This document shows, piece by piece, positions 253 through 29,287 of a stretch of DNA of 36,020 nucleotides. The notes below the pieces were generated by a model. It had not been told where the DNA came from. It did no database searches and was given only the letters and a program-made list of their open reading frames with translations. The DNA comes from a virus (taxonomy: Duplodnaviria; Caudoviricetes), in the IMG/VR virus record IMGVR_UViG_3300030433_001223, positions 1-36,020 of that record. One strand, 5' to 3'. The position numbers and the translations under genes were made by a program. The number at the start of each line of letters is the position of its first letter. The first letter of the stretch is position 1.

Positions 253-409
253 CTTCTATCAAATCCCTCAACTGTAACGCCTGTAAACATCGTTTACAAT
301 TAATATATCTACGGTCTAATTGCTTCATCTTCTGAAACTCCTGATACGTGGCCTCGTGACCACACAACGTCATCTTGAACACCGCACTAGGTGCATGCTT
401 CTTTCTCAT
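239..409 (-). CDS. 56-aa zinc-finger microprotein (H..TLCG..CKRC)
   Basis: Manual translation MRKKHAPSAVFKMTLCGHEATYQEFQKMKQLDRRYINCKRCLQALQLRDLIEDGEV; overlaps both neighbours in operon fashion. Confidence 0.7.
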   Translation of the reverse strand: MRKKHAPSAVFKMTLCGHEATYQEFQKMKQLDRRYINCKRCLQALQLRDLIEDGEV

Positions 410-507
410 AACTGCTTCTTCAACTGCTCCCTATATGTATTTACTCCTAACCAAAACCCAACTATAAACGCAACTACCATCAAAAACAAAGTAGCCAAAC
501 TACTCAT
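406..507 (-). CDS. 33-aa single-pass membrane microprotein
   Basis: MSSLATLFLMVVAFIVGFWLGVNTYREQLKKQL; ATGA overlap with the next gene. Confidence 0.65.
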   Translation of the reverse strand: MSSLATLFLMVVAFIVGFWLGVNTYREQLKKQL

Positions 508-589
508 TGCGACACTCCTTGCAAAATGAACCATACATATCTACATCCACTGGCGTTATTACCATACCACATGCCTTACACCTCCACAT
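500..589 (-). CDS. 29-aa CxxC-CxxC zinc-finger microprotein
   Basis: MWRCKACGMVITPVDVDMYGSFCKECRNE; fills the gap between coupled genes. Confidence 0.65.
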   Translation of the reverse strand: MWRCKACGMVITPVDVDMYGSFCKECRNE

Positions 590-1656: not shown

Positions 1657-1731
1657 GGATAATATGACCTAAGCACGGATTCTTGATTTTTCTTTATATA
1701 TGGTCCCGCTCCTGAATGATTGATAAGCATG
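1657..1731 (+). promoter_or_regulatory. Archaeal-type promoter and leader of the amidoligase gene
   Basis: Operator half-site ATATGACC 1662-1669, TATA box TTTATATA 1693-1700, leader TGATAAGC-ATG 1721-1731. Confidence 0.65.
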
Positions 1732-2640
1732 ACTTACAAGATAGGAATTGAAATTGAATGCAAGCTACAGAACGGCGTCTCCTTAGACGAAGTTCTCAGG
1801 AAAGTCGCAGCAGCAGGAATCACCTGCAATGACCAGCGCCACACCTCGAGCGGAAGGCTCAACGGATGTGAATGGAAATTAGTGTACGACGGTACAAGCT
1901 CCGACGACGGAGTCCCAATTTGGGAGTTTGTAAGTGAGCCTATCGTCAGTATGAAGAAGATAGAAAGAAGAGTTATCGCCATGACTTCAGTTCTTCAACA
2001 ATACTGCCGAGTTGACCGAAATACTGGCCTTCATATTCACTTTGATATCCTCGGAAAATATCACTTTAGAAGGCGTGTAGATACCTCTACTTATGAGGGG
2101 AAATTCAAGGCTCTAAGGAATAAGCCAGCACGTTTATTCTTAGCTGAGATTACAAGAAATATGCGATACTTTCAGCCTGTTTTTGATGCTTTTGTAAGCC
2201 CCTCGAGAAGAGGTAATTCATACTGTGCAACTCTCCCTAATCGTCAGCAAATTGATTCAAAACATGATTGCTTAATGTTCGCTAATAATGAGGGAGGATA
2301 CTTTCACGCTGACCCCGTTATCAGCCTAGGAGGAGGGAAATACAGAACCTTGAATATACAGAATATGGAAACAAGAGGAACCATCGAATACAGACAACAT
2401 CAAGGAACCTTAAACCCTACTAAGATTCTAAACTGGATTAAGCTATTGGAAAGGTTCACTACGAGAGCATGGGACAGAAGATACAAGAACCAAAACTGTG
2501 AAGACTTCGCCGTTGATGTTGATGGAATATTTGACTTCTTAGGATTCGGATACGATAACAGGAATATCCGAGAGTACTACCGAAGAAGGGCAGCTAGCTT
2601 CGGATTCGCAGCAATTGCCCTCAACAGTCGGCAATACTAG
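1729..2640 (+). CDS. Putative amidoligase (COOH-NH2 ligase, Amidoligase_2 family)
   Basis: Motifs GIEIE, DGT, EFVS, TGLHIHF, KYRTLN, TIEYRQHQGT in the canonical order. Start placed at the ATG after TGATAAGC. Confidence 0.9.
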   Translation: MTYKIGIEIECKLQNGVSLDEVLRKVAAAGITCNDQRHTSSGRLNGCEWKLVYDGTSSDDGVPIWEFVSEPIVSMKKIERRVIAMTSVLQQYCRVDRNTGLHIHFDILGKYHFRRRVDTSTYEGKFKALRNKPARLFLAEITRNMRYFQPVFDAFVSPSRRGNSYCATLPNRQQIDSKHDCLMFANNEGGYFHADPVISLGGGKYRTLNIQNMETRGTIEYRQHQGTLNPTKILNWIKLLERFTTRAWDRRYKNQNCEDFAVDVDGIFDFLGFGYDNRNIREYYRRRAASFGFAAIALNSRQY

Positions 2641-4227: not shown

Positions 4228-4305
4228 CAAAAGCTTTAAATAGAGTGGGACATATGTCCTATTATCAGAAGGCAACTTTTGACTAAATAAAAAGTGATAA
4301 ACATG
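4228..4305 (+). promoter_or_regulatory. Promoter, perfect palindromic operator and leader of the GATase operon
   Basis: Purine-rich BRE-like stretch, TTTAAATA 4235-4242, GGACATATGTCC 4248-4259, AAAAGTGATAAAC-ATG 4290-4305. Confidence 0.75.
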
Positions 4306-5226
4306 TGCGGAATAGGAGGATATTACCAAACAGGTAATACAGAAAACGCCCCACGGTGGGCAAAGCCAGCCCTCAGGAAAATGTGGAATAGTCTACAATC
4401 CCGAGGAACCGATGCTTCAGGCATTGCGTATGAAAGTCCTAGTGGTATTAGGCACGTAAAGACAGACAAACCTGCTTACGAACTCAGTAGTTTAGGTATG
4501 AACCTAGCTTTTGGTATGAACCGAACACCTAGATGGGTTATGTTACATACTAGAGCTTCAACTCATGGTAAACCAGAACGTAACAGAAACAATCACCCCT
4601 TAATGGGAGGTAAGCTTGCATTATGTCATAATGGTGTGGTTTACAATAAAGATAATGTCTTACGTAAGTATAATACTTCACCAAAGCGTGAGGTAGATAC
4701 TGAGGCCATTCTTGTGGCATTAAAGAACGGTGGTATAGATGCAGTTGCAGGGCATGTAGAAGGCTCTATGTCTATTTCATGGGCCAAGGGTAAGACTATG
4801 TATCTTTGGACTAATGGATTGTCTCCTTTAGTTATTGGTGAACTATTCAATGGGGACTTTATGTATTCATCAACTGATAATCATCTTATGACTACAGGGC
4901 TGAGATTCAGAAATATCTTTGATGCAAAACACGGACACCTCTACAAGTTTACGCCCACAGGTATGACTGTACACAAAACTCAGTTGAGAAAAATGCAGCA
5001 ACCTATGTATTCATGGAGAGACTTAAGCAAGAAAACACACACAAAGCAAAAGGGAACCAGACAACCCAGTCTGGTCCCAAAGCGGACTCATGCTGAACGT
5101 GTGCGCAATTTTGATGAATATGATGAAGACAGTGTGCGCTATCTTGATGATATAGATGTAACATGGGAAGCAGTCTACGGAGACTGGCGTTCATGGTCTA
5201 AAAAATCTAAGGGGTTCAGACAATGA
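4303..5226 (+). CDS. Class II (Ntn) glutamine amidotransferase
   Basis: N-terminal MCGI (Cys nucleophile after Met removal fixes the start at 4303), RGTDASG, HTRAST, NNHP, HNG, VDTE motifs. Confidence 0.92.
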   Translation: MCGIGGYYQTGNTENAPRWAKPALRKMWNSLQSRGTDASGIAYESPSGIRHVKTDKPAYELSSLGMNLAFGMNRTPRWVMLHTRASTHGKPERNRNNHPLMGGKLALCHNGVVYNKDNVLRKYNTSPKREVDTEAILVALKNGGIDAVAGHVEGSMSISWAKGKTMYLWTNGLSPLVIGELFNGDFMYSSTDNHLMTTGLRFRNIFDAKHGHLYKFTPTGMTVHKTQLRKMQQPMYSWRDLSKKTHTKQKGTRQPSLVPKRTHAERVRNFDEYDEDSVRYLDDIDVTWEAVYGDWRSWSKKSKGFRQ

Positions 5227-9047: not shown

Positions 9048-12019
9048 TATTCTAAATGTTCACCTATTACAACAAAATTTAAAGTGCTTAAGTATTGACC
9101 AGCATTGGATGGGTCTTGATTAATAGTACCACCAGTGCATTTTACTCTTAATCTTTTAAATGTTGTATATGGAGAATCAACTATATCTGTATCTACTACT
9201 GCCCAATTATATCTACCACCTTCAAGTAAAGCCCAGAGCTTTACGTATCCACTGTGTTTTAAAATTCTTATATTGGCTGAAAAAGTAGGTAACCCTAATT
9301 TAGTTTGTATAACTCCTACAGGATAACGCTTGTCACCTAAAGCCATGTTAGAACCGACACCACCTGAACGTGAAAAACTTGTACTTAAAATTGCAATACT
9401 TTTGTTGTTTATCTCTGTAAGTAAATCTAAATACCTATTAGTGCTTGAAAACACCACTATATTGTCTGTTTGTACTTCTGTAGATAAAGACCCTGCGCTG
9501 TCCTTTACACGGTGTTTAACTGCGTTAGTTTGAGCGTCATCAGCCGCACAGGATATAGATGTTAAGAAGCTAGTGTCTTTTATTATTTTACAAGTAGATG
9601 AGGCATCATTAGTAAGCGTTTCTACTATTTTTAATACATTATTTGTTACTGCATCATGTTCACTCTTAATAGTAAACGTACCATTATTTCCTGATTGGTC
9701 GTGACCTGTAATAATAATTTTATCACCGGGCGCAAAACCTTGAGTCAAAAATGCTGCGTCTGCTGAAGCTCCACCAGTTGCAGTTATCGTATCAGTGTTA
9801 CTAACTACTACTTGAATATTTTGTGGCGCAACATCAGAAGTAGTACTTTGTGCGTTATTAGGAAATGCAACAGCACTACCTCCCCAGCGATAATCTTGTT
9901 TGACTGCTCTAATTTGGGTGTTGACTAATTGATTGTCGTCAGTTAAAAGCATGTAACGTGCGCCAGTATCTTGAGCATCTAAAGTATCTACAACAACCAT
10001 ATCTACTCTTTTGAAAAATTCATCAGTAGATGTGCTAAAATCTGTAATATTATCAGGTGAAGTTATACCAACACTTTGCCATTGATAATGACTAAATGTT
10101 GAATCCGTGTCTGCAATGTTACCAGTAGTGTTGTCAGCAGAATTAAAAGATAAACTTGTCAAACCATAAACAGTAATTCTAGTAGCACCACAATCAGGAA
10201 AACTACATTTTAATTTTAATTTTTTACTACCATCTTCAAACACTGAATTATCATTATTCAATGCAAAAGATGTCATATATTGTGAACCGTCAGTAGTTTT
10301 GTATTTGTATTCAGATAAAGTTCGGTCACTTCCTATTGCAAATGAGTTCTGACCTGTAATATAAAATGCAGATGCAGAATCATTAAAATCTGTATTCAAG
10401 ACTTCTGCTCTACTTATTTTAGGCTCAGCAACAGGAGTAGGTGATGCGACAGTAGGTTGAGAAGATAAAGCAACTCTGCTACTTCTAAATCCTAATTCAT
10501 CTTCTACTTGTACTTTTATAGCTTTAGCACCACTTGAATGATATCTATGTGTAATTGTAGTGCTACCTGCAACCTCATCTAACTCTACAAAACTATAATC
10601 CTTATCTGTATCTGAAGTACCACTATCCCAATTAACTGCAAACCGTTTTACATTACCACTAAACATACCGCCTGTAGCATTTATTGTAAGTGTTATTTGT
10701 TGACCTACTGTTGGAGAAGTATCATCAACAGCAGAAGAAGAATTTACTCCGGGTCTTGTTATACTTACAATATTTCCAGCCTGTGCTAACGTTGCTGACC
10801 CAGTATTTTGATTATCTTGTGCGTAAAATTGTATTCTATACTCAGTATTGTCAGTTTTTAAGAAACTATTACTACCATCAGAAGTTAAATCAGCAGTTAC
10901 ATATGTATTTTTACCTACATCTGTAAGAGTTGCACCATAAGTGCCACTACTAACTCCAGAAGCATGATATGCAGGGTCCGCAGCTTCTTTGAAAACAGCT
11001 ACATAACTTTGTAAGTCAGGTTGCGCACCTCCATATTCTTCAGTAAAAGAAATATTAGCGTTGATTCCATCTTTTTGTGGTGTTACTTGTATTAATGGCC
11101 TGTTCGGCTTAGGATTGTCATATTCTACTTCAATTTTAGCGTTTGATATACTGTACCCAGTAGCTCCAGACGCATTTCTTCCATAAGCGTTTGTACCTAA
11201 TGGATGTTCATCATCGGCTTTTATCATAAAACCATATGATTGACCCCACTCTGGTTTATTATTTGTAAAAAAATTTTTTAAAGAAAAAGAAGTAAAGTCT
11301 CCAGAACCAGCAGGAGCCACAACATCTATCTTACCATTTGAACCATAACCATAATCAGTTTGTAAAATAGGATTGCCACCACCAATAATAATATATTCAT
11401 CACCATTGTCAAAATTATTACCACTTCCACCTGATAAAGTAATTGCATCAGTTACAGTATTAGAAGCAACACCTGAAATATTACCACTACTACCATCAGT
11501 TGTATTTAACACTTTACTACCGTTTATCGTGCCAATACCAGTTAAATTAGCGTCTTTAAAATTACCACTTGTGTCTTGTAACTGATTAGAAGTACCGCCA
11601 CTATGCGTTCCACTTCTTGATGGCGACCAAAATGTAGTTCCAGATTGACTTATGTACCACCAAGAAACATCAGTAATGTCTAAATTGTTTGGCATTTGAT
11701 ACAGAGCCATAGTTGGTGCTGAAGACTGGTCAGCAAATCTAATCATTATACGAGTGTCTAAAATCTCTAATTCATCATTGTATGGTTTTTCTGGTAAAGT
11801 AAATCTTACTAAAGTTCTAAGATATTCTCCTGAAACACGACCTACTGTGATATTATCAGAAGAAATTACAGAGCCAGCAGAACCAGTGCTAATACTATGA
11901 AAGGTAGCAAAGCCTGCTGGAGGGTCATCGGCATTAGCTTCAAAAGTTCCAGACGAAGTTGTAAGTCTAGTATTTTGACCTCCACCTTCAAAACCAAAAG
12001 TGTCAGTAAAATTCGTCAT
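9047..12019 (-). CDS. Large tail protein with DNRLRE-like, Ig/PKD-like and C-terminal Dit-like regions
   Basis: 990 aa, S/T/G/D-rich; RTLVRFTLP...YGFMIK, VNWDSG...THRY...VQVEDELG; sits between tape measure and hub. Confidence 0.6.
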   Translation of the reverse strand: MTNFTDTFGFEGGGQNTRLTTSSGTFEANADDPPAGFATFHSISTGSAGSVISSDNITVGRVSGEYLRTLVRFTLPEKPYNDELEILDTRIMIRFADQSSAPTMALYQMPNNLDITDVSWWYISQSGTTFWSPSRSGTHSGGTSNQLQDTSGNFKDANLTGIGTINGSKVLNTTDGSSGNISGVASNTVTDAITLSGGSGNNFDNGDEYIIIGGGNPILQTDYGYGSNGKIDVVAPAGSGDFTSFSLKNFFTNNKPEWGQSYGFMIKADDEHPLGTNAYGRNASGATGYSISNAKIEVEYDNPKPNRPLIQVTPQKDGINANISFTEEYGGAQPDLQSYVAVFKEAADPAYHASGVSSGTYGATLTDVGKNTYVTADLTSDGSNSFLKTDNTEYRIQFYAQDNQNTGSATLAQAGNIVSITRPGVNSSSAVDDTSPTVGQQITLTINATGGMFSGNVKRFAVNWDSGTSDTDKDYSFVELDEVAGSTTITHRYHSSGAKAIKVQVEDELGFRSSRVALSSQPTVASPTPVAEPKISRAEVLNTDFNDSASAFYITGQNSFAIGSDRTLSEYKYKTTDGSQYMTSFALNNDNSVFEDGSKKLKLKCSFPDCGATRITVYGLTSLSFNSADNTTGNIADTDSTFSHYQWQSVGITSPDNITDFSTSTDEFFKRVDMVVVDTLDAQDTGARYMLLTDDNQLVNTQIRAVKQDYRWGGSAVAFPNNAQSTTSDVAPQNIQVVVSNTDTITATGGASADAAFLTQGFAPGDKIIITGHDQSGNNGTFTIKSEHDAVTNNVLKIVETLTNDASSTCKIIKDTSFLTSISCAADDAQTNAVKHRVKDSAGSLSTEVQTDNIVVFSSTNRYLDLLTEINNKSIAILSTSFSRSGGVGSNMALGDKRYPVGVIQTKLGLPTFSANIRILKHSGYVKLWALLEGGRYNWAVVDTDIVDSPYTTFKRLRVKCTGGTINQDPSNAGQYLSTLNFVVIGEHLE

Positions 12020-12702
12020 GCTAACCCTCTACTGCCCGGTCCACTACCACCAATAAATGTGTCATTTAATTTTCTATTTAAACCGTCTAAAGAAAACTCT
12101 TGCATCAAATTAAATAACTTTTCTATACCGAAAATTACTCCATCAGTTACTATTTGCAGTTCTCTGAATATTGCTACTAAAGGCTTAAAGACATCTGTGA
12201 CTTTCTTAATACGCCCTTCTAAAATCATAATTACAGTAATTAAAGCTACAACAGCAACCGCCATCGCTATCAGTGGATTTGCTTTCATAGCTAAATTTAA
12301 CTTAGTTGTTGCTGCTGTCAATCCTCCTGTAGCTGCTGTTTGACCTGTTTTTGTTTTTATATCTGACTTACCTAATGCTATAGATAATGTAAGATACGCT
12401 AAGTATATCTCCGCAGGACCAGCAAACAATTCTAAAACAGCAGTTCCTTTACGAATCAACTCAGCTTGTTCTTTAAATCCTAATCTGTCAAACGCTCCTG
12501 CTAATTTGTTAAATCCACCTACAGTCTGATTTAGAGCAGCAGTCATTGCCTGATAACGTGCAACTTGTGCTAAAAATGCAATATTTGCTTTCTGTGTTTC
12601 TTGTTCTAATTTAGTTTGCGCATTCGCAGCTTTATTTGTTGATTGTGTTAAACCAGCAGCTTTACCTTCAAGCACTACACTAATTACATATTCTTCAGCC
12701 AT
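12016..12702 (-). CDS. Very short tape-measure-like protein
   Basis: Ala-rich helical sequence, N-terminal ISVVLEG strand, LNLAMKANP motif followed by a hydrophobic helix; canonical position. Confidence 0.75.
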   Translation of the reverse strand: MAEEYVISVVLEGKAAGLTQSTNKAANAQTKLEQETQKANIAFLAQVARYQAMTAALNQTVGGFNKLAGAFDRLGFKEQAELIRKGTAVLELFAGPAEIYLAYLTLSIALGKSDIKTKTGQTAATGGLTAATTKLNLAMKANPLIAMAVAVVALITVIMILEGRIKKVTDVFKPLVAIFRELQIVTDGVIFGIEKLFNLMQEFSLDGLNRKLNDTFIGGSGPGSRGLA

Positions 12703-14589: not shown

Positions 14590-15053
14590 TATACCACCGC
14601 CTCGTAACTTGTGATTTCACAATCGAGAACGTAACGAAACCAGCGTCTAGTCTTATCGGACTGGTCTACTCTTGAAAGCAGCTTTATGTCTGCGTAATTG
14701 GCATTTAACGGAGTCATTCCTGATGCTCCAGCTCTAGCGCCTCTAATGATACTTACAACTTCTGAATACAAATCTCTAAGCCTTGCTCTACCTACCTTAG
14801 TTGCAATATCTATCGAAATAGTGGCTGTACCTTTGTCAAGGCCATTGCCAACTCCTAAAAAATCATGTGTAGCTGCTACTTCATAACAACGAATCACATC
14901 ATTTGTTTTTAAATTTACTTTGTTTAAATCCCAAGTATCGCCAATATTTGGTTTTACAGAAGTTCCAGCTATATCATTAACATCCCAATTAGAATCTAAC
15001 AAAGACGAAACTGTAGTTACAGGGTCGTTTAATTCAGCGTAAGTGACTCCCAT
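14589..15053 (-). CDS. Putative tail terminator
   Basis: 154 aa, ISIDI strand followed by a helix and a C-terminal strand; position. Confidence 0.55.
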   Translation of the reverse strand: MGVTYAELNDPVTTVSSLLDSNWDVNDIAGTSVKPNIGDTWDLNKVNLKTNDVIRCYEVAATHDFLGVGNGLDKGTATISIDIATKVGRARLRDLYSEVVSIIRGARAGASGMTPLNANYADIKLLSRVDQSDKTRRWFRYVLDCEITSYEAVV

Positions 15054-15775
15054 TAATCAACCACCCTACCTACTCCAAACCCACCGATAGCTCTTGCCAT
15101 AGTCATATCTCTGTCTAATCTACCGTTATCTGTAAGTATTTTCATTGCCATATCTTCAAACTTCTGAGACTTAGTAGCGTTATCCATAGAATCATCTGCT
15201 TCTTGCATTAGATTTAAATCATCATTAGCTGCAATAGTTGATGCCGTAAAATAAATAGTTGCTAGTTTTATATCTTGTGGAGTTGTAGTGTCACCATATC
15301 TATACTTTACATAAGCATCTACGCCTTGTGGACTACTGTTTAGCATATTGTGTGTAGCATAATTTTCTATGTAGATTATACCACGTTCTGTATCTACCCA
15401 AAAATCTTTGCCGTTAACATCTGTTACTGAACTTCCCATAGTTTTACTTGCCACATAATCCACATATGCACTACCTTCCCAAACCTGAAGTGTGTCTCCA
15501 CTACCGCCCGCTAGTGGCAGTATAGGATAATGAGCTAATTGTATTCTACCACGTACATTAATTGCATTAGACCGTACTGTTTGTACTCTTGCACGTTCGT
15601 CAGTTACAGTTCTTGCTTTAGCTGTAGACCATGCGTGATTTGTAAGTTCTTCAATACGGCCTTCTGCCATATCAATAAACGCTTCTACATCTGTACTAGT
15701 TGGAGTTGTACTACCACTAAAATCGTCAACTTGTAAAAAAGCTGCTACATCGTTTGCTGTACAATAACTTGGCAT
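15053..15775 (-). CDS. Putative head-tail adaptor
   Basis: YCTANDV start and VKYRYG...PQDIKLAT motif characteristic of gp6/gp15-like adaptors. Confidence 0.8.
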   Translation of the reverse strand: MPSYCTANDVAAFLQVDDFSGSTTPTSTDVEAFIDMAEGRIEELTNHAWSTAKARTVTDERARVQTVRSNAINVRGRIQLAHYPILPLAGGSGDTLQVWEGSAYVDYVASKTMGSSVTDVNGKDFWVDTERGIIYIENYATHNMLNSSPQGVDAYVKYRYGDTTTPQDIKLATIYFTASTIAANDDLNLMQEADDSMDNATKSQKFEDMAMKILTDNGRLDRDMTMARAIGGFGVGRVVD

Positions 15776-16533
15776 TACAATATCCTACTGAGCGCTGTAT
15801 TCATCAACTTTTCGCCAGTAGTTGCTACAACCATACCATTCATGTCGATAGGTTGTCCTGCCATGTTCCAGCCAATTGCTCCAACTGGTAACGTAACATA
15901 TCCTTGCTGTTGTGCAAGCGGTGGAGGACCACCGCCGTTTGCTGTGTAAAATTGTTCTCCATTAGCTAATGTATCTATAGCTGGTGGTGGCATCTGCCAT
16001 GCTTGTGGTTGGGCGGTTGCTGTGCCTACACCGAACCATGTCCACGGCTTAAACATACTAGCTCCGCCCTGCATAGGCATCTGCTGTTGCATATATGGGT
16101 TTGGCATCATTGGTTGTTGAGTCACGGCAGGAGCTTGTTGGAGTTGGCCATCGCTTCCGTAAGGATTCTGCCAATTTAATACGCTATGATGCGCATTGTC
16201 ATCTGTAGCCCACTCCTCATGCAAGGTGAGACGAGCATTAAGCTCCTCCGCAGCCTCGTCACCATACATAGTTCTAGGATGCCAGTCTATCTGTGTGTTA
16301 TAGACTGTCTTTAGAAATTCCATATTATCATGCAAATCTGTGGGAACTTGCACGTCAGTTTCCTTACACAATGCTTCTAACATCTCTACAGAGTTCTTAA
16401 TGACTGGGTACAAATATTGTACCATTCTCATTGTTGTATTTTCTGCTGCCTTTGCATCGTAATCTGGATGCTGTATCTTGTCTACTGCCACAGGGTTTAG
16501 ATAACCTGATGGACTTCCTGCATATCCGCTCAT
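15775..16533 (-). CDS. Hypothetical protein with Q/M/P/G-rich C-terminal half
   Basis: ORF track (GTG 16545); ATG 16533 preferred from ATGA overlap and GTGGAG RBS. Confidence 0.75.
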   Translation of the reverse strand: MSGYAGSPSGYLNPVAVDKIQHPDYDAKAAENTTMRMVQYLYPVIKNSVEMLEALCKETDVQVPTDLHDNMEFLKTVYNTQIDWHPRTMYGDEAAEELNARLTLHEEWATDDNAHHSVLNWQNPYGSDGQLQQAPAVTQQPMMPNPYMQQQMPMQGGASMFKPWTWFGVGTATAQPQAWQMPPPAIDTLANGEQFYTANGGGPPPLAQQQGYVTLPVGAIGWNMAGQPIDMNGMVVATTGEKLMNTALSRIL

Positions 16534-16622
16534 AGTCTTCTCCACTTTATTTTTTGCTTTACACCGTCACAGTGTAAGGTAAACTTCTCTCTTGTAAATA
16601 CAGGATGTGGGCGAGGTGGCAT
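16530..16622 (-). CDS. 30-aa basic microprotein
   Basis: MPPRPHPVFTREKFTLHCDGVKQKIKWRRL; GTGGAG RBS, closes the operon gap. Confidence 0.45.
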   Translation of the reverse strand: MPPRPHPVFTREKFTLHCDGVKQKIKWRRL

Positions 16623-16630
16623 TCTCCACT

Positions 16631-16996
16631 TCATAATCCAAACCTCCTGTTCTGACGGGTTGACAAAGCCGAGAGATACTCGTCATAGTCACGTTGGTGT
16701 AATTTACAGAAGCCTCCTCCTGTCGCCATGCCACAATAAGGACACTCGTCTTTGCCATGTTTCCGCCTTAACCCCCACCACTTTCGTGATAGCCTTTTGT
16801 GTCTCATACTGAGACGTTTTACATACAAATCCAATTCTTCATCAGACATTGCCTCCGCTGTGGGCATCATCTGTTGTTGTACTGGTTGTCTTGTAAGAAC
16901 ATTAGGGGCTGGAGCCACTTCTCGTGCTGGTTCCTCTGTTAGTGTGTGTTGAGGATTTTTGCGTACTAGGGTCGTCATTTGTGGTGGTCCAGCCAT
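16631..16996 (-). CDS. Zinc-finger protein with P/Q-rich N terminus
   Basis: CPYCG...CKLH; basic central segment. Confidence 0.75.
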   Translation of the reverse strand: MAGPPQMTTLVRKNPQHTLTEEPAREVAPAPNVLTRQPVQQQMMPTAEAMSDEELDLYVKRLSMRHKRLSRKWWGLRRKHGKDECPYCGMATGGGFCKLHQRDYDEYLSALSTRQNRRFGL

Positions 16997-17379
16997 CAGA
17001 GTCCACCTTTGCGCATCATTTGCGCTGTTCTTGTTGCTGCTTGTCCTACCTGTACTTCAGGACTGACAAACGCTTTTACTACTAATGCTTTAATCATTGA
17101 TAACAATATACTTACAGCCATAACAAACATAAGGAATCCATTGTATAACCAAGCGACTCCCCATATTGCCATACCGTATTCTGTTACTACTGAATCATAA
17201 TAATAACCAATATACAGGCCAATTCCACCTAATGCAAAGCCTATACCCATAAGCCATACACATCTCTTGAACCAAACCCATTCTATATATCTACAAAACT
17301 CTACGTCTTGTTGGCCTCCTGCACCCATTGTGCTAGGATACCTGCCAGTGCTAAACAACATATTTCTTATGAATCTCAT
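16996..17379 (-). CDS. Two-TM membrane protein
   Basis: Hydrophobic segments VWLMGIGFALGGIGLYIGYYY and AIWGVAWLYNGFLMFVMAVSILLSMI. Confidence 0.8.
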   Translation of the reverse strand: MRFIRNMLFSTGRYPSTMGAGGQQDVEFCRYIEWVWFKRCVWLMGIGFALGGIGLYIGYYYDSVVTEYGMAIWGVAWLYNGFLMFVMAVSILLSMIKALVVKAFVSPEVQVGQAATRTAQMMRKGGL

Positions 17380-18200
17380 GGTCTCACCACATCTACGTAT
17401 GCATTCTTTTGCGAATCCATCTTCTCATACATGTCACGCTTAAACTCCCTAGAGAGTTGATAAGCGACCTCGTATCCGATTGGTTCCGCTCCATCAGGCA
17501 TAGGAATCCATTTTGGATGATAAGTATATATACTTATCCTACGAAAGTTTGGCTTGAAATCTAACTTGTCATCGTGAAACTCAATGTAGGCTTTCTGTGC
17601 AAAACCTTCCTCATCTACTAATGATTCTAAACTGTGCTGAGAAAGTACGGCATTAACTGTATTTTCTATGTTTTTAACAGGAACCAATTTAGAAATAGAA
17701 ACAGGCGTCTCCCATCTGAATATGTCGGAAGGTGTCAAATTTTCTACGACAGAGTGGAGCAATTCATCACAGGAGACAATCGCCTCTGACATGTCAAATG
17801 TTTTAAGCCTTACGCCTTTTAGACTAAAATCTTTGACTTTACCTTTGATATGTCCTGCTTCATTAGATATTTTTATCCAATCATCTATAGCAAACTCTGT
17901 TTTGTATGCTACTGTAAGAAAAGATAATGCTCCGTTGACAGGACTGTACTGGGAAAAGGCAGCGTAAGTAAGTGCTGATACGCCTACTATATACTCGGTC
18001 CGTGCTAATAACCCACTATACATTAAGAGACCAATCCCGAAAACAATGGCCCCTAAAACTCCAAATACTTGCGCTGCTGCTTTTCCTTGTAAACTTCTTA
18101 TTTTATAATCTGTAAATGCTGACTTTTTTGCTTTAGCTACCGCTCCAGAAACTCCTAACGCTACTGCGATAAACCATGCAAAAACTAAGCCCTCATCCAC
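17376..18200 (-). CDS. mscS: MscS-family mechanosensitive channel homologue
   Basis: Three N-terminal hydrophobic helices, then FAIDDWIKI...GKVKDFSLKGVRLKTFD...IVSCDELLHSVVENLT matching the MscS middle beta-domain pattern, then an alpha/beta C-terminal domain. Confidence 0.75.
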   Translation of the reverse strand: MDEGLVFAWFIAVALGVSGAVAKAKKSAFTDYKIRSLQGKAAAQVFGVLGAIVFGIGLLMYSGLLARTEYIVGVSALTYAAFSQYSPVNGALSFLTVAYKTEFAIDDWIKISNEAGHIKGKVKDFSLKGVRLKTFDMSEAIVSCDELLHSVVENLTPSDIFRWETPVSISKLVPVKNIENTVNAVLSQHSLESLVDEEGFAQKAYIEFHDDKLDFKPNFRRISIYTYHPKWIPMPDGAEPIGYEVAYQLSREFKRDMYEKMDSQKNAYVDVVRP

Positions 18201-18684
18201 TATTTTTTCCCTTCTGTGCTATCTTATCAATGTGCGGTCCTTGTTCCGCTTCTAACAACTCACCAGTAGTTGGATTAATATATCCACCAGCTTGTGCTGG
18301 CATAGGCATTGGTTGTTGCTGTTGTTGTTGGTATTGCTGATATGGCATCATGTTAGGTGGGATTGGTTGCCCTACATGACCGTCTCGATTCATGTCCCAG
18401 CCTGTTCTGTTTTCCATATAGTTCATAGCATTACTGAACATTCCTTGATTTTGATAACCCGAAGGTTTTTTCTTTCTCTCTGCAAATTCTTCTAAATCTT
18501 GCGAATCTGCTATTGTGGAGAGTATGGTATATGTGAAAGCACCACTTACCGAACCAAACCAAAGGGCGTCATTGTATGCCATGTTGCCCACATACATTAA
18601 AGTGAATGCGTTAGCTATGAAAACTAACAAGGCACTCAACCTGTTGTATGATTGTTTTATTTTGTGCTTAATCGTTTCTTCCAT
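18193..18684 (-). CDS. Two-TM membrane protein with Q/P/M-rich tail
   Basis: Two N-terminal hydrophobic helices, DMNRDG loop, YQQYQQQQQQPMPMP tract. Confidence 0.8.
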   Translation of the reverse strand: MEETIKHKIKQSYNRLSALLVFIANAFTLMYVGNMAYNDALWFGSVSGAFTYTILSTIADSQDLEEFAERKKKPSGYQNQGMFSNAMNYMENRTGWDMNRDGHVGQPIPPNMMPYQQYQQQQQQPMPMPAQAGGYINPTTGELLEAEQGPHIDKIAQKGKNSG

Positions 18685-19009
18685 TCTCGATTTCCTCTTT
18701 TGCTCTTAGCGTCACAAACCGTGCAGTGTTGTAATTCCACGGCCTGTCTGCTTTTGTCTTGATACCTGCATCGTTTAAATACTTTGCTATACCGCCATAC
18801 GTATAGCCATTTTCTCTTAAAAATACCATTTTTTTACACACTAACCACTCCTTGACAGATGCGCCAAACCTAACAGACCGATACGGGCGTTTGCGCTGGC
18901 TTTTTTCTGCGCTAAAGTTACTTTGAGTAGATGAACCCATGCCATACCATAAATCACCTTTAAACGGCTTCTGTGCCGCTTTTAGTCCTAATTCAGATTT
19001 TACTCTCAT
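18668..19009 (-). CDS. Stand-alone Recombinase-type DNA-binding domain (no catalytic resolvase domain)
   Basis: GYTYGGIAKYLNDAGIKTKADRPWNYNTARFV fits the IA..LN..GI.T....W signature of serine-recombinase Recombinase domains; only 113 aa. Confidence 0.7.
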   Translation of the reverse strand: MRVKSELGLKAAQKPFKGDLWYGMGSSTQSNFSAEKSQRKRPYRSVRFGASVKEWLVCKKMVFLRENGYTYGGIAKYLNDAGIKTKADRPWNYNTARFVTLRAKEEIENGRND

Positions 19010-22000
19010 TTAGTCATTAACTCTAGTGCGTTGTCTAGTGCTGGCTTTGTAAGTCTCAAATCATCATCCCCTGCCTCATCTGCATCCAATAACTGCTGAG
19101 TGTCTAAGGTGTGAAAGAATTGTCTTATGTTAGCTGTACCATCATCATCATATTGAATATTTGTAACTGAACCAACCACTGTAAGGTCTCCGTCATCTTT
19201 TACTCTAATATTAGATACGTCTCCAACTATTTCTAAATTAGCTGCTGGCGGAAAATATCCTTGTGTATGTGGGGATGTTGTTCCTATTATCGTTGTGTTT
19301 CCAGTAAGTAAACTAACGCTTGAACCACAATGAAAGAAATCAAACCTGTTAAAACTTCCTGATTTACTTCCAAGATATGTAGAGTTTCTTAAGTCTACAG
19401 TTGCACCATTGTCTACATCTAAAAACGCACAAGTTATTGTATTACCATTAGCATTGTAGGTTGTACCATTGTTTACTTCTAACTCTTCTGTAATTGTATG
19501 ATTGCCTGTTGCTACTGTAGTTGATGAACCACTACATTGTATTCTTGGTATTGTTACTTCAGGAATATTTACACTTCTTGGCGAAGTCATAGAATTCAAA
19601 ATTTTAAATAAATTAGCAACATTAGTTGCTGGGTCTGCAAATGTGACTGTTCCGCCATCCATAGCGTTAAGAAACCTTAATGGTTCAGTGGTGTTAGAAC
19701 TTAGTGTTGCCCCTGAACCGCAAGTAAATGTATCTCCATTTAGTCTAAAAGAACTGCCTCCTCCATCTAAATCTTTTAAGGTAATAGTTCCAGTAATGTT
19801 TAAATTATAAATATCTTCGACTCCACCATTGTAATTTATGAACTTGTTAGAACCAGCCATGACAAGCGTAGAAGTGCCGTGTGTAAATGTTCCTGAGCCT
19901 GCCCAAGATGCTCCTGACATTGTTCCATCTACATTATTGCTTGTCGAATCAAACACAGTTGTACCTGAGCCTGTATCAAATTGCCACCAAGCATTAAGAT
20001 TAGTTTTTGACACTGCGGCATAATCTTGAAACATTAAAGTTCTTATTTGAGCTTCTGTAAGCTCTGCTGACCAGATAGAAGTTCTAGCAATATCTCCATC
20101 ATAATAAAAATCTGCGTTATTACTTCTACGACCCATACGAAATTCATGTACTCCATTACAGTCTCCAGCAACCGTTACAGTTTCTTGTTGCAATTTGCCA
20201 TCAACATACATTTTCATTACACCGCTGCTATCTTTAGTACATGCAACGTGCGCATATTTACCTGTAGTAAAAGTGTCATCTGAAGAAATATTATTTGATG
20301 TACTTGAACTAACACATTTGAAAAACCACTTACCACCATTGATGCCAAGACCATACTCTTTTGTACCTGCACTGCCAAAATTGACTTTACCTACTACAGC
20401 TTGTAAACCAGTTGCATCAGGTTTAAACCATCCTTCGATTGTAAAAGCTCCTGTTAAATCTGTTGATGCAGGATGTCCAAAATCTACTTCATCATTAGTG
20501 CCGTCAAATGTCATAGCACTCTTACCAATAAGACCACCACTGGTAGTAAAATCTCCATGCACTGTAAGTATATCATTATCTCCATCCAATTCCCCTCCTG
20601 TTGCAACAATTAAATTACCACATTTGTTATTTGTTCCATTTAAACTTCGATATGGAGATGCAATGCGCAAATTACCTCTATAACCAAACGAGTTATTCCA
20701 ATCACAACTTGTCGTTCCATTGTTAATTAAAATATTTGTTGTAGAATCACCAACAAATGAAGTATCATTAAATCTAATATTGTCTCCAGATGTAGAACCT
20801 GTTACAATTATAGAAGCTCCGTTTTCATTATCATACGTGCCATTTTGAATATCTAACAAAGAAGTAATTAACATCCCTGCACCAAAGTCTACTGTGGTTC
20901 CTGTATCTGCTGTAAATGCACCAGAACATTCCATCCTCTGTCCATTCAAATCTAAAGTATATCCACTACTTACTGTTACGGCATCAAACTCACAATCTCC
21001 TGTAAGTGTTATTTTTTCTGATGCAGAACCTGAACCTGTTGTAAGTGCTATCTGATAATCTAAATTAGCTAACTTCCAATCTGCTGCGGAATTTGCATTC
21101 CAATCCCAATCAGTTCCTGTACATACCGCAGGAAATAAATTCGAGGCACCCTGTACTGTTGGCTTGTTAGTGCCTGAATTGTCTACACTTAACGTACCAT
21201 TGTTGACTATAGAGCCTGCTGCTGTTGTAGTACCGATAGTAAGAGTAACTGCATTAGAACTGTTGTTTAATTTAAAATGACCTGTACTAATCGTAAGTGC
21301 GTTTTCTACAGTTGTATCTCTGTAAATCTGTGTAAAAGCCCCTCCACTATATGTGAAGTTGTGGAATGTAATTGGTGCAGTTCCAGAGGTGTTTATCAGA
21401 GTATTATCTCCGCTGACTGACTCGAATGTTCCGCTGTTGTGTGTAAATGTACCAGAGTTCTGAAAGTTGCGTACTAAAGATACTGTGCCTCTTGGTGCTG
21501 AAAACGTACCGTTAGCTGCTATAACAAGGTCAAAGTCAAGGTCAAGAGTGCCGTTCTGCCATCCGCTACCGCCTCCACCTCCAGCATTACCTGTAGTTGT
21601 AACAAAACTATCAAGCGAACCGTTAACCGCATTTGCCGTTCCTGAATTCACAGCAGTTGTAGTTGCAGTGCCTTGAATACTGTCATCTAATTTCCAATGA
21701 TGTAATGGCGTTTGTGGATATGTGTTAGAATAAAGAGAAGAAGCTTGGTCTTGTGAAAGTGCATAGTCGTAAATCCTAACATCTCGAATCTCACCATCGT
21801 AGTAGTTACTACTGCCGTTAAAACCTATAAGCAACGCATTACTACTTGTGGACAAAGCACTATCCCAAGTGTCACCTCCTGTAAACTCTTCAAATGTTGC
21901 ACCGTTTAAAGAAAATAATATTTTATTATTTGCCCTGTCAAATACAACCGTTATATGATTCCAGACGTTTAAAGTTAAAGCAGAAAAAGTAGAAGCTGTA

Positions 22001-23046
22001 TCTTTAGCATTTCCATTAACATCTTTGCAATATACTCTAACTCTTTGAGATGAACCGCCACTAATCATAAAATCACCATTACCAGTAATGCCTCTTGCTA
22101 TGATTCTGTCATTAGAATCAAACGTATCTGGTCTTACCCATGTTGATATTGTAAAGTCTCCACTTTGGTCTAAAGATGCGTCATCAGCAACAATAACACT
22201 ATCATTAGTACCATCAAAAGCAAGTGATGTCAAAGCCTTACCCTCTACCTTTCCTTGTGTTACTGTAAACGTTCCATCTGTCGTTGTACTATTATCATAT
22301 ACATCTACACTGTATTGGTCAAACACCCAGTTGCCATTGCTTAAAGTAGCATCATAATCTGTTCCCGAATCATCATGGTCTACAATACTTGTTCCTGTTC
22401 CTTCGTTGATTTTGTACCAAGCTTTTCTATTATCTATGCCAAACGTAGCTGAGTCAACATTTATTTTAGATGCCAGTTGTTGTATTTCTGCTGCTGTAAG
22501 TAAATCTCCAAAAAACTTTACATCTGCTATATACCCTTTCCATAAATTGGCTGGACTTGCAGAATTTTCTCCACCAAGCAACCACTGATTATGAGATATA
22601 GCATTTGATGATTTTGAAGAAATGTCTTGTGTAACTTGAGCTACACCGTTTACATACAACACTGCGTTAGCACTTCTGTCAAAAGTCATAGCAATATGCG
22701 CCCAACTATCTAAAATAGGTGCTAAAGCAAAATTACCACTGTTACTGCCGCTAGATACCTTAAAGAATAAATTAGTTTGATTGTGCCTTAATGTAAATCC
22801 GTTTGTGTTTCCTGCTTGTCCCCTTGATATAATGTGTAATTCAGAACTGTCAAGAGTGCTTGGAAACTTGACCCACATAGAAAAAGAAAAGTCATTAGTT
22901 CCAAAATCTAAATCACTAGCAGAAGGAATGGTAATGTAATCCCCCGTGCCATCTAAATACAAAGCACTGTCAAGATTTACATTAACGTTTGCTGCTCCAA
23001 GATTTCCTTCTATTATTCCGCCCGTGCCTGTTATTTCTATTGTCAT
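19006..23046 (-). CDS. Virion fibre/adhesin with three LamG (ConA-like) domains
   Basis: Three repeats of (L/F)DG..D...F(S/T)...W...HI/HV...(Y)VNG/DG...G.I.DV-type LamG pattern separated by G/T/N-rich beta-helix-like spacers. Confidence 0.88.
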   Translation of the reverse strand: MTIEITGTGGIIEGNLGAANVNVNLDSALYLDGTGDYITIPSASDLDFGTNDFSFSMWVKFPSTLDSSELHIISRGQAGNTNGFTLRHNQTNLFFKVSSGSNSGNFALAPILDSWAHIAMTFDRSANAVLYVNGVAQVTQDISSKSSNAISHNQWLLGGENSASPANLWKGYIADVKFFGDLLTAAEIQQLASKINVDSATFGIDNRKAWYKINEGTGTSIVDHDDSGTDYDATLSNGNWVFDQYSVDVYDNSTTTDGTFTVTQGKVEGKALTSLAFDGTNDSVIVADDASLDQSGDFTISTWVRPDTFDSNDRIIARGITGNGDFMISGGSSQRVRVYCKDVNGNAKDTASTFSALTLNVWNHITVVFDRANNKILFSLNGATFEEFTGGDTWDSALSTSSNALLIGFNGSSNYYDGEIRDVRIYDYALSQDQASSLYSNTYPQTPLHHWKLDDSIQGTATTTAVNSGTANAVNGSLDSFVTTTGNAGGGGGSGWQNGTLDLDFDLVIAANGTFSAPRGTVSLVRNFQNSGTFTHNSGTFESVSGDNTLINTSGTAPITFHNFTYSGGAFTQIYRDTTVENALTISTGHFKLNNSSNAVTLTIGTTTAAGSIVNNGTLSVDNSGTNKPTVQGASNLFPAVCTGTDWDWNANSAADWKLANLDYQIALTTGSGSASEKITLTGDCEFDAVTVSSGYTLDLNGQRMECSGAFTADTGTTVDFGAGMLITSLLDIQNGTYDNENGASIIVTGSTSGDNIRFNDTSFVGDSTTNILINNGTTSCDWNNSFGYRGNLRIASPYRSLNGTNNKCGNLIVATGGELDGDNDILTVHGDFTTSGGLIGKSAMTFDGTNDEVDFGHPASTDLTGAFTIEGWFKPDATGLQAVVGKVNFGSAGTKEYGLGINGGKWFFKCVSSSTSNNISSDDTFTTGKYAHVACTKDSSGVMKMYVDGKLQQETVTVAGDCNGVHEFRMGRRSNNADFYYDGDIARTSIWSAELTEAQIRTLMFQDYAAVSKTNLNAWWQFDTGSGTTVFDSTSNNVDGTMSGASWAGSGTFTHGTSTLVMAGSNKFINYNGGVEDIYNLNITGTITLKDLDGGGSSFRLNGDTFTCGSGATLSSNTTEPLRFLNAMDGGTVTFADPATNVANLFKILNSMTSPRSVNIPEVTIPRIQCSGSSTTVATGNHTITEELEVNNGTTYNANGNTITCAFLDVDNGATVDLRNSTYLGSKSGSFNRFDFFHCGSSVSLLTGNTTIIGTTSPHTQGYFPPAANLEIVGDVSNIRVKDDGDLTVVGSVTNIQYDDDGTANIRQFFHTLDTQQLLDADEAGDDDLRLTKPALDNALELMTK

Positions 23047-26906: not shown

Positions 26907-26970
26907 GTGTGCGTTATTTGGCTCAGCCTATATAAATAACAAAAAATACTCGGGTTTGTGTGCGTTATTT
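26902..26970 (-). promoter_or_regulatory. Putative late promoter of the scaffold-MCP operon
   Basis: Minus strand: AACCCGAGTA (26947-26956), TTTATATA (26929-26936), flanked by two GTGTGCGTTATTT boxes (26907, 26958). Confidence 0.65.
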
Positions 26971-26974
26971 AGTT

Positions 26975-29221
26975 TTATGGCTTAAAATTAGCTCTGCCTA
27001 CTGCGTCTCTAAGTTTGAATCCGCTAGTCATTCCGCCACCACCATCTGGTTTTTTGTATGGTTTACTAAATTTTCCGGGATTTCTATATAACTCCGCACA
27101 CCATGCAGACTCATCTCTTATAACATTACGAGGTCCAGTAAATTTATCGCCTGTAAAACCACTTAACTTTCTTGCTGCAAGTTTACAATTAGCCATCCAA
27201 GTTCCCGGAGGTTGTCTTGCACCCCTACCTTTAGGTGGTCTTTTCTTTGGTTGTTTTTGTATAATGTCTAAAATATCATCTATATGTTCATTGCTTTTTG
27301 CAAGTATGTCTGACACGTTTTTTGCACTCCACATCTTACAAGACCAGTATCTTGCCTTGTGTTTAGGTCCGGGACTATCGCAATTATGTCTTGCCCTAAA
27401 GTTTCTACGTCTTTCTGGGTCATCACGTTTTATGTCTAAGTTAGGGTCGCCAAACTTAACTTGCACTACATTGCCTTTATCGTTTTTGACATAAACTCCA
27501 AACTTTTTGTTTTCTCCAGACAGTCTGCGTGGTTTGTTAAGTTCTACTTTGCGACCTTGATACTCAGCTTTTATAATTCTTTCATCCTTGTGGCTTTCTA
27601 ATACTGTAAATGGAAACGCCTCTACTGCACCATCATGTGGTTCGTAGTCTCCTTCCATCAATACTGGACCTTCTCTTGTCTGCATCCAGTGATAACCTTT
27701 AGGCGGATTTACTTTTACAGTATCTTCTTTAGATTTCTTTGTAGATTTAGGATGTTCTTTTGGTAACAAATCATAATCTGTAGTATATTTTGGATTAGAT
27801 GGCCTACCAGAACTTAGTAATTTTAAAAATGCTTTGACTCTACCTAACGCCCATTGGTCACGACTTCTTACACTTGGCCTGTGACTTGTTGAAAATGCGC
27901 CTGCACCCCTACGGAATACAGCTTTCAATGCTCCGAGATTTGCTCTCTTGCCTTTTGCATCACCAACTTTTTCGTTATGTTCTTTAATATAATTCTTAAG
28001 TGTTTTTATGTTTGCTTCACTAAGTTTGATTCCGCCACGTTGTCCGCCTGCTGAACCTCTTGGGTTTCTAGTACTGCCTCTACGCCTCTCGCTAGGCTTT
28101 GCAGGTGTTTGTGGATGTCTACTCTTACTTACAGGTACACAATTTGGCACACGTTTGCCTCCTTCGTTCTTAAATCCGACCATCTCATAACCTGTCCAAC
28201 ATGGTGCAGCTTTTACTTTATCTTGTAAACTCTTACTCCAGCTATGTCCTGCATCGCCGCCCATCATCTTCCACATAATCAAACCCTTACTAGGTCTTTT
28301 CTTATTGTCAAAGTTTTTACCTTTAGGGTCTACCTTTTCATGTCTTCTATAATACTTGTGAATCTTCATTGCCATGCCATATGATACATATTTTTTATTT
28401 ATCAAGTGTGCGTTTATTGCTTTTGTAACTTTACCGCCACCATATCCAAACTTCTTACGTAGCTCTCGGCCTGCCAGCGCTTCTTCTCTTACGCCATTTG
28501 GTATCTTGTACTTTTCTACTTTTGTCACAAGGTCATTGAGTAAATCAGATTTACTGAATCTTCTCGCTTGTATGGCCCTTTCCTGCCTTATAGCTCCAGC
28601 TTTGGTATCGTGACAACCCAGAAGCCTTCGGTCCTTTTTAGCATACAAACAGTATTTGCCTTTTTTACGCTCTATGATTTTTTCAACCATGCCTTCTATC
28701 TCATCTAAAGTGACTTGTACACTTTTAGATTTGACCATAGCAACATCCGTGACTTTTGCCTCTGGGTTAGCAGGATTATCGCCAACCCAAGATATGCTCC
28801 AAAGAGAAAGTTCGTTTATACGATTGTGGCAGTCGTTTTCTGATTGACAAACCTTCTCTTGTTTTGTGGCTTCTCCACGTATGCTGCTTGCTCCTGTGTG
28901 TCCGTATTGTTTAATCTCATCCCACACTTTATCGTGCATTCCGATTTTACTGTGTATTCCAACTCTAATCTTGACTTTACCGTCTTTTATTTTGTAAGCC
29001 AAAGGTAAACCGATTGGCATCTCTTCGTGACGATAAGAATATACGCCGTAGCGCATGTAAAAATCCATAGCTTCTTTGATAGTATCAGTGGGTATCATAT
29101 CGTTCTGTTTATCAACGATAGGAGCGGAGATGTATGTCTCCATTACTCTGTCATTATACCACTCTGGTCGGTAGACTTTCCAACCAGTGTTACTTTCGTC
29201 TGCCACAAATAACGCACACAT
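26975..29221 (-). CDS. HK97-type prohead protease fused to multiple basic modules
   Basis: N-terminal VDKQND, YRHEE, SSIRG, ISWVGDNPANPEA; about 580 aa of C-terminal K/R-rich modules. True start may be GTG 29206. Confidence 0.85.
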   Translation of the reverse strand: MCALFVADESNTGWKVYRPEWYNDRVMETYISAPIVDKQNDMIPTDTIKEAMDFYMRYGVYSYRHEEMPIGLPLAYKIKDGKVKIRVGIHSKIGMHDKVWDEIKQYGHTGASSIRGEATKQEKVCQSENDCHNRINELSLWSISWVGDNPANPEAKVTDVAMVKSKSVQVTLDEIEGMVEKIIERKKGKYCLYAKKDRRLLGCHDTKAGAIRQERAIQARRFSKSDLLNDLVTKVEKYKIPNGVREEALAGRELRKKFGYGGGKVTKAINAHLINKKYVSYGMAMKIHKYYRRHEKVDPKGKNFDNKKRPSKGLIMWKMMGGDAGHSWSKSLQDKVKAAPCWTGYEMVGFKNEGGKRVPNCVPVSKSRHPQTPAKPSERRRGSTRNPRGSAGGQRGGIKLSEANIKTLKNYIKEHNEKVGDAKGKRANLGALKAVFRRGAGAFSTSHRPSVRSRDQWALGRVKAFLKLLSSGRPSNPKYTTDYDLLPKEHPKSTKKSKEDTVKVNPPKGYHWMQTREGPVLMEGDYEPHDGAVEAFPFTVLESHKDERIIKAEYQGRKVELNKPRRLSGENKKFGVYVKNDKGNVVQVKFGDPNLDIKRDDPERRRNFRARHNCDSPGPKHKARYWSCKMWSAKNVSDILAKSNEHIDDILDIIQKQPKKRPPKGRGARQPPGTWMANCKLAARKLSGFTGDKFTGPRNVIRDESAWCAELYRNPGKFSKPYKKPDGGGGMTSGFKLRDAVGRANFKP

Positions 29222-29287
29222 GAGGCAATATAAAAAGAAAAATATTTACTCGGGTTGCAAAATAATGCACACATTGTGTGCGCAATC
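29206..29287 (-). promoter_or_regulatory. Putative late promoter of the protease gene
   Basis: Minus strand: AACCCGAGTA (29247-29256), TTTATATT (29227-29234); three GTGTGC boxes (29214, 29266, 29276). Confidence 0.65.

Follow-up and report, generated by a model that had tools for sequence, protein, structure and literature searches.

A conserved gene cassette with an MscS-family channel in the virion operon of an archaeal-type tailed virus: a possible egress module

IMGVR_UViG_3300030433_001223 is the record of a tailed virus (Duplodnaviria; Caudoviricetes), and its stretch of 36,020 nucleotides, analysed here at full length, is referred to below as the window. An earlier sequence-only reading of this DNA pointed to seven coupled genes (G1 to G7, positions 15775-19009), one of them for a homologue of the MscS channel, as a membrane module of lysis, egress or entry. 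According to the data presented here, five of these genes (G2, G3, G4, G5 and G7) make the constant core of the cassette, and G3 has the MscS fold. The probability that this five-gene block opens the host membrane at a late stage of infection and so lets progeny out is estimated as about 0.45, and this reading is favoured because of elimination and the position of the block.

Results and discussion

Composition of the cassette

Seven minus-strand open reading frames (ORFs) do fill the interval between the genes of a LamG-repeat fibre and an adaptor-like protein (Table 1), each overlapping the next, and the LamG stop overlaps G1 at 19006-19009. The name "adaptor" reflects position and the earlier label only, as the matched PHROG 17057 has no assigned function. 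Genes for terminase, portal, Mu-F-like protein, protease, capsid, LamG fibre and tail all lie on the same minus strand, and the late-operon position proposed for the cassette is supported. A search with MscS gave 17 viral loci with the same gene neighbourhood in all of them, as far as the contigs extend. The whole distance from LamG to adaptor is covered by 15 distinct contigs (43 loci), two of which do not differ within this region. Every one of the 15 contains G2-G3-G4-G5-G7 in this order. Thus co-occurrence across related viruses, which had been chosen beforehand as a test that could overturn the idea, was confirmed, but for a unit of five genes rather than seven.

To avoid selection on MscS itself, an adaptor alignment was also used as a query. 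It collected 35 loci, three of them without upstream DNA, and in all 32 remaining contigs G7 ends directly before the adaptor gene. Seventeen of these 32 begin within G5-G7, as might be expected of assemblies broken by near-identical cassette DNA of co-occurring genotypes. From the capsid side, 80 of 169 loci (at least 48% identity) and one further set were taken. Thirteen of all these loci ran more than 5.5 kb beyond the capsid gene, and the six extending past LamG all continue into G1 or G2.

G1 is optional (7/15 spanning contigs), and its interpretation as an integrase was rejected, since the catalytic domain is absent. G6, which is 34 and not 30 amino acids (aa) long, was likewise discarded as a conserved regulator, being a variable micro-ORF: the spacers on either side of G5, G4-G5 and G5-G7, accommodate interchangeable micro-ORFs of about 15-66 aa, and the slot of G6 is occupied by differing ORFs of 15-66 aa in 12 of 14 genomes and by none in the other two. 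In the G5-G7 spacer of one relative (L005, 4396-4667) an inserted 66-aa Cys-rich ORF shares its last residues with G5; this duplicated junction shows how micro-ORFs enter the slot. Parts of G1, G2, G3, G4, G5, G7 and the capsid gene are also present in contigs from four metatranscriptome runs; such contigs tell neither strand, level nor timing and may stem from carried-over DNA, and they were not used as evidence of expression.

The fold of G3

The MscS fold of G3, on which the earlier proposal had been made to depend, may be regarded as settled by Pfam, fold searches and profile-profile comparison. G3 matched PF00924 (MscS beta-domain) with E 1.7e-8 and 34.9 bits against a cut-off of 20.2, and its relatives scored 33-38 bits; PF21082 (C-terminal alpha/beta domain) was not matched in the Pfam scan, and sequence-only searches of PDB gave nothing for G3, G2, G4, G5 or G7. 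The first structural model, built from 21 viral sequences only, had a predicted local distance difference test score (pLDDT) of 56.8, residues 63-152 being poor (under 50). In Foldseek, MscS-family chains filled the first 16 listed ranks for this model apart from gaps (best E 4e-4), and the first seven rows in VIA were also MscS-family, with MscK/MscS on top (Z 9.6, root mean square deviation 2.3 over 87 residues of the C-domain), so that the C-terminal alpha/beta domain of MscS is present in the viral-only model. The second model (pLDDT 75.5) aligned with MscS from end to end in Foldseek (E 2.5e-9) and with 7onj in VIA (Z 11.5, deviation 6.0, 226 residues); its alignment held 11 cellular MscS rows, and its fold matches therefore lean towards MscS, a bias from which the first model is free. 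Profile-profile comparison matched G3 to MscS with a probability of 98.5% (E 2e-15, 183 columns). Helices of the second model (3-27, 37-61, 68-81 and 87-100) reproduce the layout of transmembrane (TM) helices TM1-TM2-TM3a/3b, TM3 being weakly hydrophobic. The JGI annotation of G3 is also "small-conductance mechanosensitive channel". Prediction of a G3+G4 complex scored 0.00 with an uncertain partner fold, and was counted neither for nor against.

Identity of G3 to the nearest cellular MscS is 23-34% over the matched stretch, and no relative of it was found in 50,697 phage records. G3 represents a virus-specific MscS subfamily. Two distant MscS-like proteins of viral type (P0247 and P0248; 28-30% identity) have the Ser-Pro kink in common. 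Seven metagenome loci with matches of 32-35 residues were dropped, as no cassette profile recognised them.

The pore helix was compared in 126 viral sequences, E. coli MscS (NC_000913.3) and 11 cellular relatives. In MscS, L105 and L109 form the gate, G113 is the kink, and G104, A106 and G108 are critical (PMC6261518). The statement of the sequence-only reading that the third helix lacks the Gly-rich gate pattern holds for three of these positions: G104 is replaced by A76 (126/126), A106 by T78 (124/126) and G108 by A80 (117/126). Thus G3 departs from the E. coli pattern of G101/G104/G108 with A106 packing, which is not required of the wider MscS family; the G108-to-Ala change also occurs in 2 of the 11 aligned cellular relatives. 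The rest of that statement does not hold, since G101 is kept as G73 in every viral sequence and the L105 gate as L77 (L in 118, F in 6, I in 2). L109 corresponds to F82 (F in 116, L in 9; L/F/I/V in all 126) or to A81, the register being uncertain by one residue, and with L77 and F82 the hydrophobic gate is present. A Ser-Pro pair, S86-P87, occupies the G113 kink position in 126/126, and G73, A76, A81, S83, S86, P87 and N89 are all invariant. The gate of G3 is thus altered yet intact.

Partner proteins

G2 begins with a weakly hydrophobic hairpin (about residues 13-57) followed by a hydrophilic Q/P/M-rich tail. Some relatives contain in G2 an optional 25-residue insert (about 18380-18460, minus strand) with a calcium-loop-like DxNxDG motif, and others are cleanly without it. 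G4 forms a hairpin of a Gly-rich helix and a second, longer-drawn one, and has an amphipathic N-terminus and a basic C-terminus; its 39 protein matches, two of them partial, carry no functional name. Both G2 and G4 have the layout expected of holins, i.e. small size, at least one TM helix and a hydrophilic C-terminus (PMC10791045). G5 combines a Q/P-rich N-terminus and a basic helix with a C-x2-C-x8-C-x2-H zinc-finger-like motif, whose ligands C85, C88, C97 and H100 are invariant in 9/9 aligned sequences. G7 consists of a helical N-domain, a Q/P/M linker and an amphipathic C-terminal helix, has no membrane segment, and gave 153 homologues and no Pfam match. In ESM Atlas G7 and G4 match unnamed clusters of their own families only. 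For G2, G4, G5 and G7, Pfam, PHROGs, NCBIfam, PDB and ESM Atlas offered no named family and no relative outside this virus group.

Conservation and exchange

Amino-acid identity and the proportions of non-synonymous (pN) and synonymous (pS) differences were evaluated over the window plus 12 close relatives, with exclusion of the two deepest. Mean identity was 86-91% for the five core genes versus 48-67% for LamG, adaptor, terminator, major tail and chaperone genes. For the core pN was 0.05-0.09 versus 0.21-0.38 for five flanking virion genes, pS being 0.45-0.58 and 0.53-0.66, respectively. Among individual genes, G2 showed 89% mean identity with pN 0.072 and pS 0.56, G3 had pN 0.086 and pS 0.58, G7 had pN 0.063, and the lowest pN in the block belonged to G4 (0.048). 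Purifying selection on the core is therefore strong.

Exchange contributes as well. Against one relative (L138) pS was 0.19-0.25 for the cassette and 0.52-0.74 for the flanks, and in four relatives blastn revealed a block of 85-91% identity over about 17.0-19.1 kb. The conservation of the core thus combines purifying selection with exchange between genomes. Three relatives (G001-G003) share with the window 95-98% identity in MscS, 69-71% in terminase, 68-71% in portal and, where seen, 51-56% in capsid protein. At the deepest split (G005) the corresponding values are 52% for MscS, 72% for G7, 54% for terminase and 58% for portal; at depth the evolution of the block is that of a core gene. GC content at four-fold sites is 0.21-0.39 in the cassette versus 0.10-0.15 in the LamG, fibre, adaptor, major tail and tail tip genes; two virion genes also have values of 0.23 and 0.33.

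Putative promoter

In eight genomes without G1 a short AT-rich stretch precedes G2. A TATA-like box ends 18-19 nt before the G2 ATG in seven of them, and a close approximation to it occupies the same place in the eighth; in the control such a box at 15-26 nt was found in 1 of 158 gene starts. The spacing of 18-19 nt fits a leaderless archaeal transcript. Since a TATA-like box precedes G2, the cassette likely heads the tail operon. In genomes with G1, a box inside this gene, resembling a TFB recognition element (BRE) with TATA, may perhaps act as the cassette promoter; the six identical codons there are the longest such run in G1, and runs of 5 and 9 exist in G3 and G5.

Egress as the favoured function

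No integrase catalytic domain was found among 29 scanned window proteins; the virus is therefore probably lytic and needs a membrane lesion. The same 29 proteins (outside the cassette mostly ORFs of about 100 aa or more) contained no endolysin by Pfam and PHROGs, in agreement with the earlier reading, and none of the neighbours of G2 and G4 (MscS, G1, G5) scored as a lysin. One "endolysin" PHROG row (E 2.8e-4) was discarded, as it falls on the tape-measure-like gene, whose best match and 4/5 others are tape-measure families. Hydropathy of the 197 window ORFs of at least 40 aa singled out as credible membrane genes the tape-measure-like gene, G2, G3, G4 and one ORF of 42 aa; the remaining hydrophobic ORFs either lie across larger genes in a different frame or strand, or lack a divergent homologue. 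A role at the host membrane such as egress is favoured because, apart from the tape-measure-like gene, conserved multi-helix membrane proteins are encoded by the cassette only. A holin-like layout in the same slot of HVTV-1, described below, would by analogy also count for egress.

The 42-aa ORF (406-534, minus strand) encodes one strongly hydrophobic helix with a basic tail and is matched in 12 other loci, 10 of them under 85% identity. It is possibly a second membrane actor outside the cassette.

If the five-gene block does serve egress, its transcription would be driven by an archaeal promoter of its own, with which the tail operon begins, G3 subunits would assemble into a viral homo-heptamer, and G2 and/or G4 would accumulate like holins and then set off the lesion or enlarge it. 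The part of G5 and G7 would be that of soluble partners clustering or timing the membrane proteins via Q/P/M-rich segments and amphipathic helices. Ions and water would enter a cell having no rigid wall and cause its colloid-osmotic swelling and burst, and an endolysin would therefore not be needed. The fullest form of this proposal, in which the cassette would supply one lineage of tailed archaeal viruses with the egress machine so far missing, endolysin-free, with MscS as lesion or trigger, two new holin-like families and its own promoter, and exchanged as a unit between viruses that otherwise diverge, is tentative and to be taken with doubt.

Several points weigh against egress. MscS channels normally guard against lysis, and G5 and G7 have neither a membrane segment nor, to our knowledge, a precedent in lysis cassettes. 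The direction of the gate changes is ambiguous, as a Gly-to-Ala exchange raises the gating threshold of MscS. The A106V substitution, in contrast, locks EcMscS open (PMC6261518). Diversity is typical of phage holins (PMC10791045), whereas no other part of the region is as conserved as the cassette. Searches of Pfam, PHROGs, NCBIfam, PDB profiles and ESM Atlas returned no holin family for G2 or G4, holins being too diverse for this absence to decide. Part of the high cassette identity is recent exchange and not constraint, because at the deepest split MscS is no more similar than terminase and portal, and the conservation of the cassette would be explained no less well by its interaction with a conserved target in the host.

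Alternative functions

One can suppose that G3 is an ordinary tension-gated channel keeping the infected cell intact, inserted or regulated by its neighbours, and that lysis proceeds by other means. The full MscS architecture with retained G101, hydrophobic gate and kink agrees with this, as does the G108-to-Ala change in cellular relatives, and viral channel genes, MscL among them, have been read as osmotic aids (PMC13288924, where MscL is mentioned in estuarine viruses). On the other hand, G3 lacks a close cellular relative and is fixed in place among four genes seen in viruses only, and the hydropathy scan of window ORFs gave no further conserved candidate for lysis. Auxiliary genes tend to be patchily distributed and near to a host copy, while G3 is universal in the spanning contigs. 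We consider such a protective role unlikely.

Next comes a non-lytic platform, in which an MscS cage would be a scaffold with Q/P-rich glue for assembly, DNA tethering or superinfection exclusion, conducting little or nothing. Q/P/M-rich segments in three of the five core proteins, the basic character and zinc-finger-like motif of G5, and strong conservation with inter-genome exchange, as suits a shared interface, are in line with this, and plant MSL10 reportedly has a role that involves no conductance (PMC6261518). The pore-lining residues, on the contrary, are among the most invariant, as expected of a working pore. Exclusion genes, moreover, do not usually head a tail operon, and we rate this scheme low.

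The entry function suggested earlier, with packaged proteins forming a DNA conduit at infection, would accord with the place of the cassette among virion genes, the short tape-measure-like gene (228 aa) and the existence of Q-rich ejection proteins in other phages. It is made quite improbable by the separate promoter layout in G1-less genomes, by codon use (four-fold-site GC) which differs on average from that of flanking virion genes, and by the nature of HK97-type virions, in which no lipid is expected, the MscS pore being also narrower than double-stranded DNA. Least probable of all is the poisoning of host MscS by viral subunits, which would join its heptamers, put the safety valve out of action and thereby cause the cell to burst: altered TM3 packing residues and the late position speak for it, but the low similarity to cellular MscS, with no close relative in 185,579 GTDB genomes, and the several MscS paralogues common in hosts speak against.

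Comparison with known systems

With the MscS family (E. coli MscS, YnaI, YbiO and MscK; plant MSL1 and MSL10; FLYC1) G3 shares three N-terminal helices, a kinked TM3, the beta-domain and the alpha/beta domain, at about 8-19% identity to solved members. It differs by A/T/A at G104/A106/G108, an extra TM3 residue, Ser-Pro at the G113 kink and loop inserts in the C-domain, and in being encoded as a core viral gene. The only BFVD match of G3 at E<=0.001 (1.4e-7, 11% identity) is A0A076FGK6, a virus-encoded 3-TM MscS of similar length from Aureococcus anophagefferens virus. In this giant algal virus MscS is a lone gene with no cassette described in the available text, which mentions MscL-like genes in two other large viruses, all functionally untested (PMC6163359).

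Phage holin and pinholin cassettes and the putative holins of Vyasavirus (PMC11706807) resemble G2 and G4 in small size, two hydrophobic helices, a hydrophilic tail and location in a late operon. The cassette differs from these systems in having no holin-family match and no adjoining endolysin, and in containing MscS and two soluble proteins; the genome of Vyasavirus is 87 kb versus ~36 kb here (PMC11706807).

HVTV-1 (Haloarcula virus, Druskaviridae) has a capsid protein 30% identical, a homologous adaptor and one membrane-type gene in the same slot; homologues of the five core genes were not found in 25 kb of HVTV-1 or 30 kb of vir519. The gene in the slot, gp124 (L164, 14250-14582; 110 aa), lies directly before the adaptor and encodes an N-terminal hydrophobic segment (hydropathy 2.04) with a hydrophilic tail. 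It is unrelated in sequence to the cassette proteins and is a holin candidate of a cultured halovirus.

The word "mechanosensitive" is absent from the available text of PMC11706807 (main text), PMC5332604, PMC12934983, PMC8651126, PMC10791045 and bioRxiv 2022.10.18.512658, and in that of PMC10160649 "channel" occurs once, in a reference. No description of the cassette was found in the searchable full-text literature, PMC13108676 included, a scope that leaves aside subscription papers and most supplements; the cassette is thus apparently undescribed.

Virus, host and other features of the window

The window ends share 138 bases (137/138 identical), which makes it a complete circular genome of ~35.9 kb; CheckV completeness of the record is 99. 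In agreement with the archaeal type of virus assumed earlier, all 9 matches of the capsid protein in the 50,697 phage records are archaeal viruses, namely HVTV-1/HCTV types at 29-30%, HVTV-1 being the closest, and one Methanofastidiosa virus. Terminase matches (~25% identity) are bacterial and haloarchaeal mixed. A pattern scan of GTDB genomes (185,579 for MscS) gave no relative of the MscS or capsid gene. Runs holding the cassette are marine metagenomes, 12 of them with half or more of the cassette words. The host is likely archaeal, and Poseidoniales would be a guess.

Of the Magrovirales traits, the window has the halovirus-type capsid protein and lacks the genome near 90 kb (magroviruses average about 90 kb; PMC10160649) and the family B DNA polymerase, as no DNA polymerase was found among its long ORFs. 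Membership in Satyavativiridae is not supported either, being set aside on size alone (87 kb versus ~35.9 kb). Amidoligase and glutamine amidotransferase genes are listed for Vyasavirus too (PMC11706807). The short tape-measure-like gene would imply a very short tail. The motif AACCCGAGTA followed by a T/A box is repeated upstream of the protease and scaffold genes (upstream regions of about 26907-26975 and 26975-29260, minus strand) and is possibly a late promoter or operator. In the most distant relative, G005 (L160, 13089-15359, minus strand), QueC, GTP cyclohydrolase I, radical SAM and PTPS genes, which the window does not have, adjoin the terminase genes; this 7-deazaguanine pathway may modify the DNA of that virus.

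Table 1. Positions of the cassette genes and other features in the window
Feature	Position	Strand	Basis or remark
Amidoligase gene	1720-2640	+	
Glutamine amidotransferase gene	4294-5226	+	
Tape-measure-like gene	12016-12702	-	228 aa; 192-275 aa in relatives
Head-tail adaptor-like gene, HVTV-1 gp125 homologue	15053..15775	-	profile E 1.5e-26
G7, core, soluble Q/P/M-rich protein	15775..16533 (ORF 15775-16545; likely start ATG 16533)	-	
G6, non-core, 34-aa micro-ORF in variable insertion slot	16530..16634	-	
G5, core, zinc-finger-like protein, 121 aa	16631..16996	-	motif C-x2-C-x8-C-x2-H
G4, core, membrane hairpin, 127 aa	16996..17379	-	hydropathy
G3, core, MscS-family channel subunit, 274 aa	17376..18200	-	PF00924, fold and profile matches
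G2, core, N-terminal two-helix hydrophobic hairpin with Q/P/M-rich tail, 163 aa	18193..18684	-	hydropathy, alignment
G1, lone DNA-binding domain of large serine recombinases, 113 aa	18668..19009	-	PF07508 E 7.8e-6, over cut-off
Possible BRE/TATA-like box inside G1, about 90 nt before G2	18774..18787	-	six codons identical in 7/7 G1 copies
LamG-repeat virion fibre/decoration protein	19006..23046	-	PF13385 E 5e-67; phrog_8510 virion structural protein

Implications

In the available text of PMC10791045 and bioRxiv 2022.10.18.512658 the factors behind lytic egress of tailed archaeal viruses are described as completely uncharacterised, and no holin of an archaeal virus is reported as tested. The cassette offers three concrete membrane proteins open to expression and patch-clamp work in laboratory hosts, with no need to culture the virus, and the natural gate variant of G3 would be useful for channel biophysics. 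Even if the supposed role in lysis is wrong, one would not expect a virus of 36 kb to keep MscS among its core genes and to conserve it better than its capsid protein.

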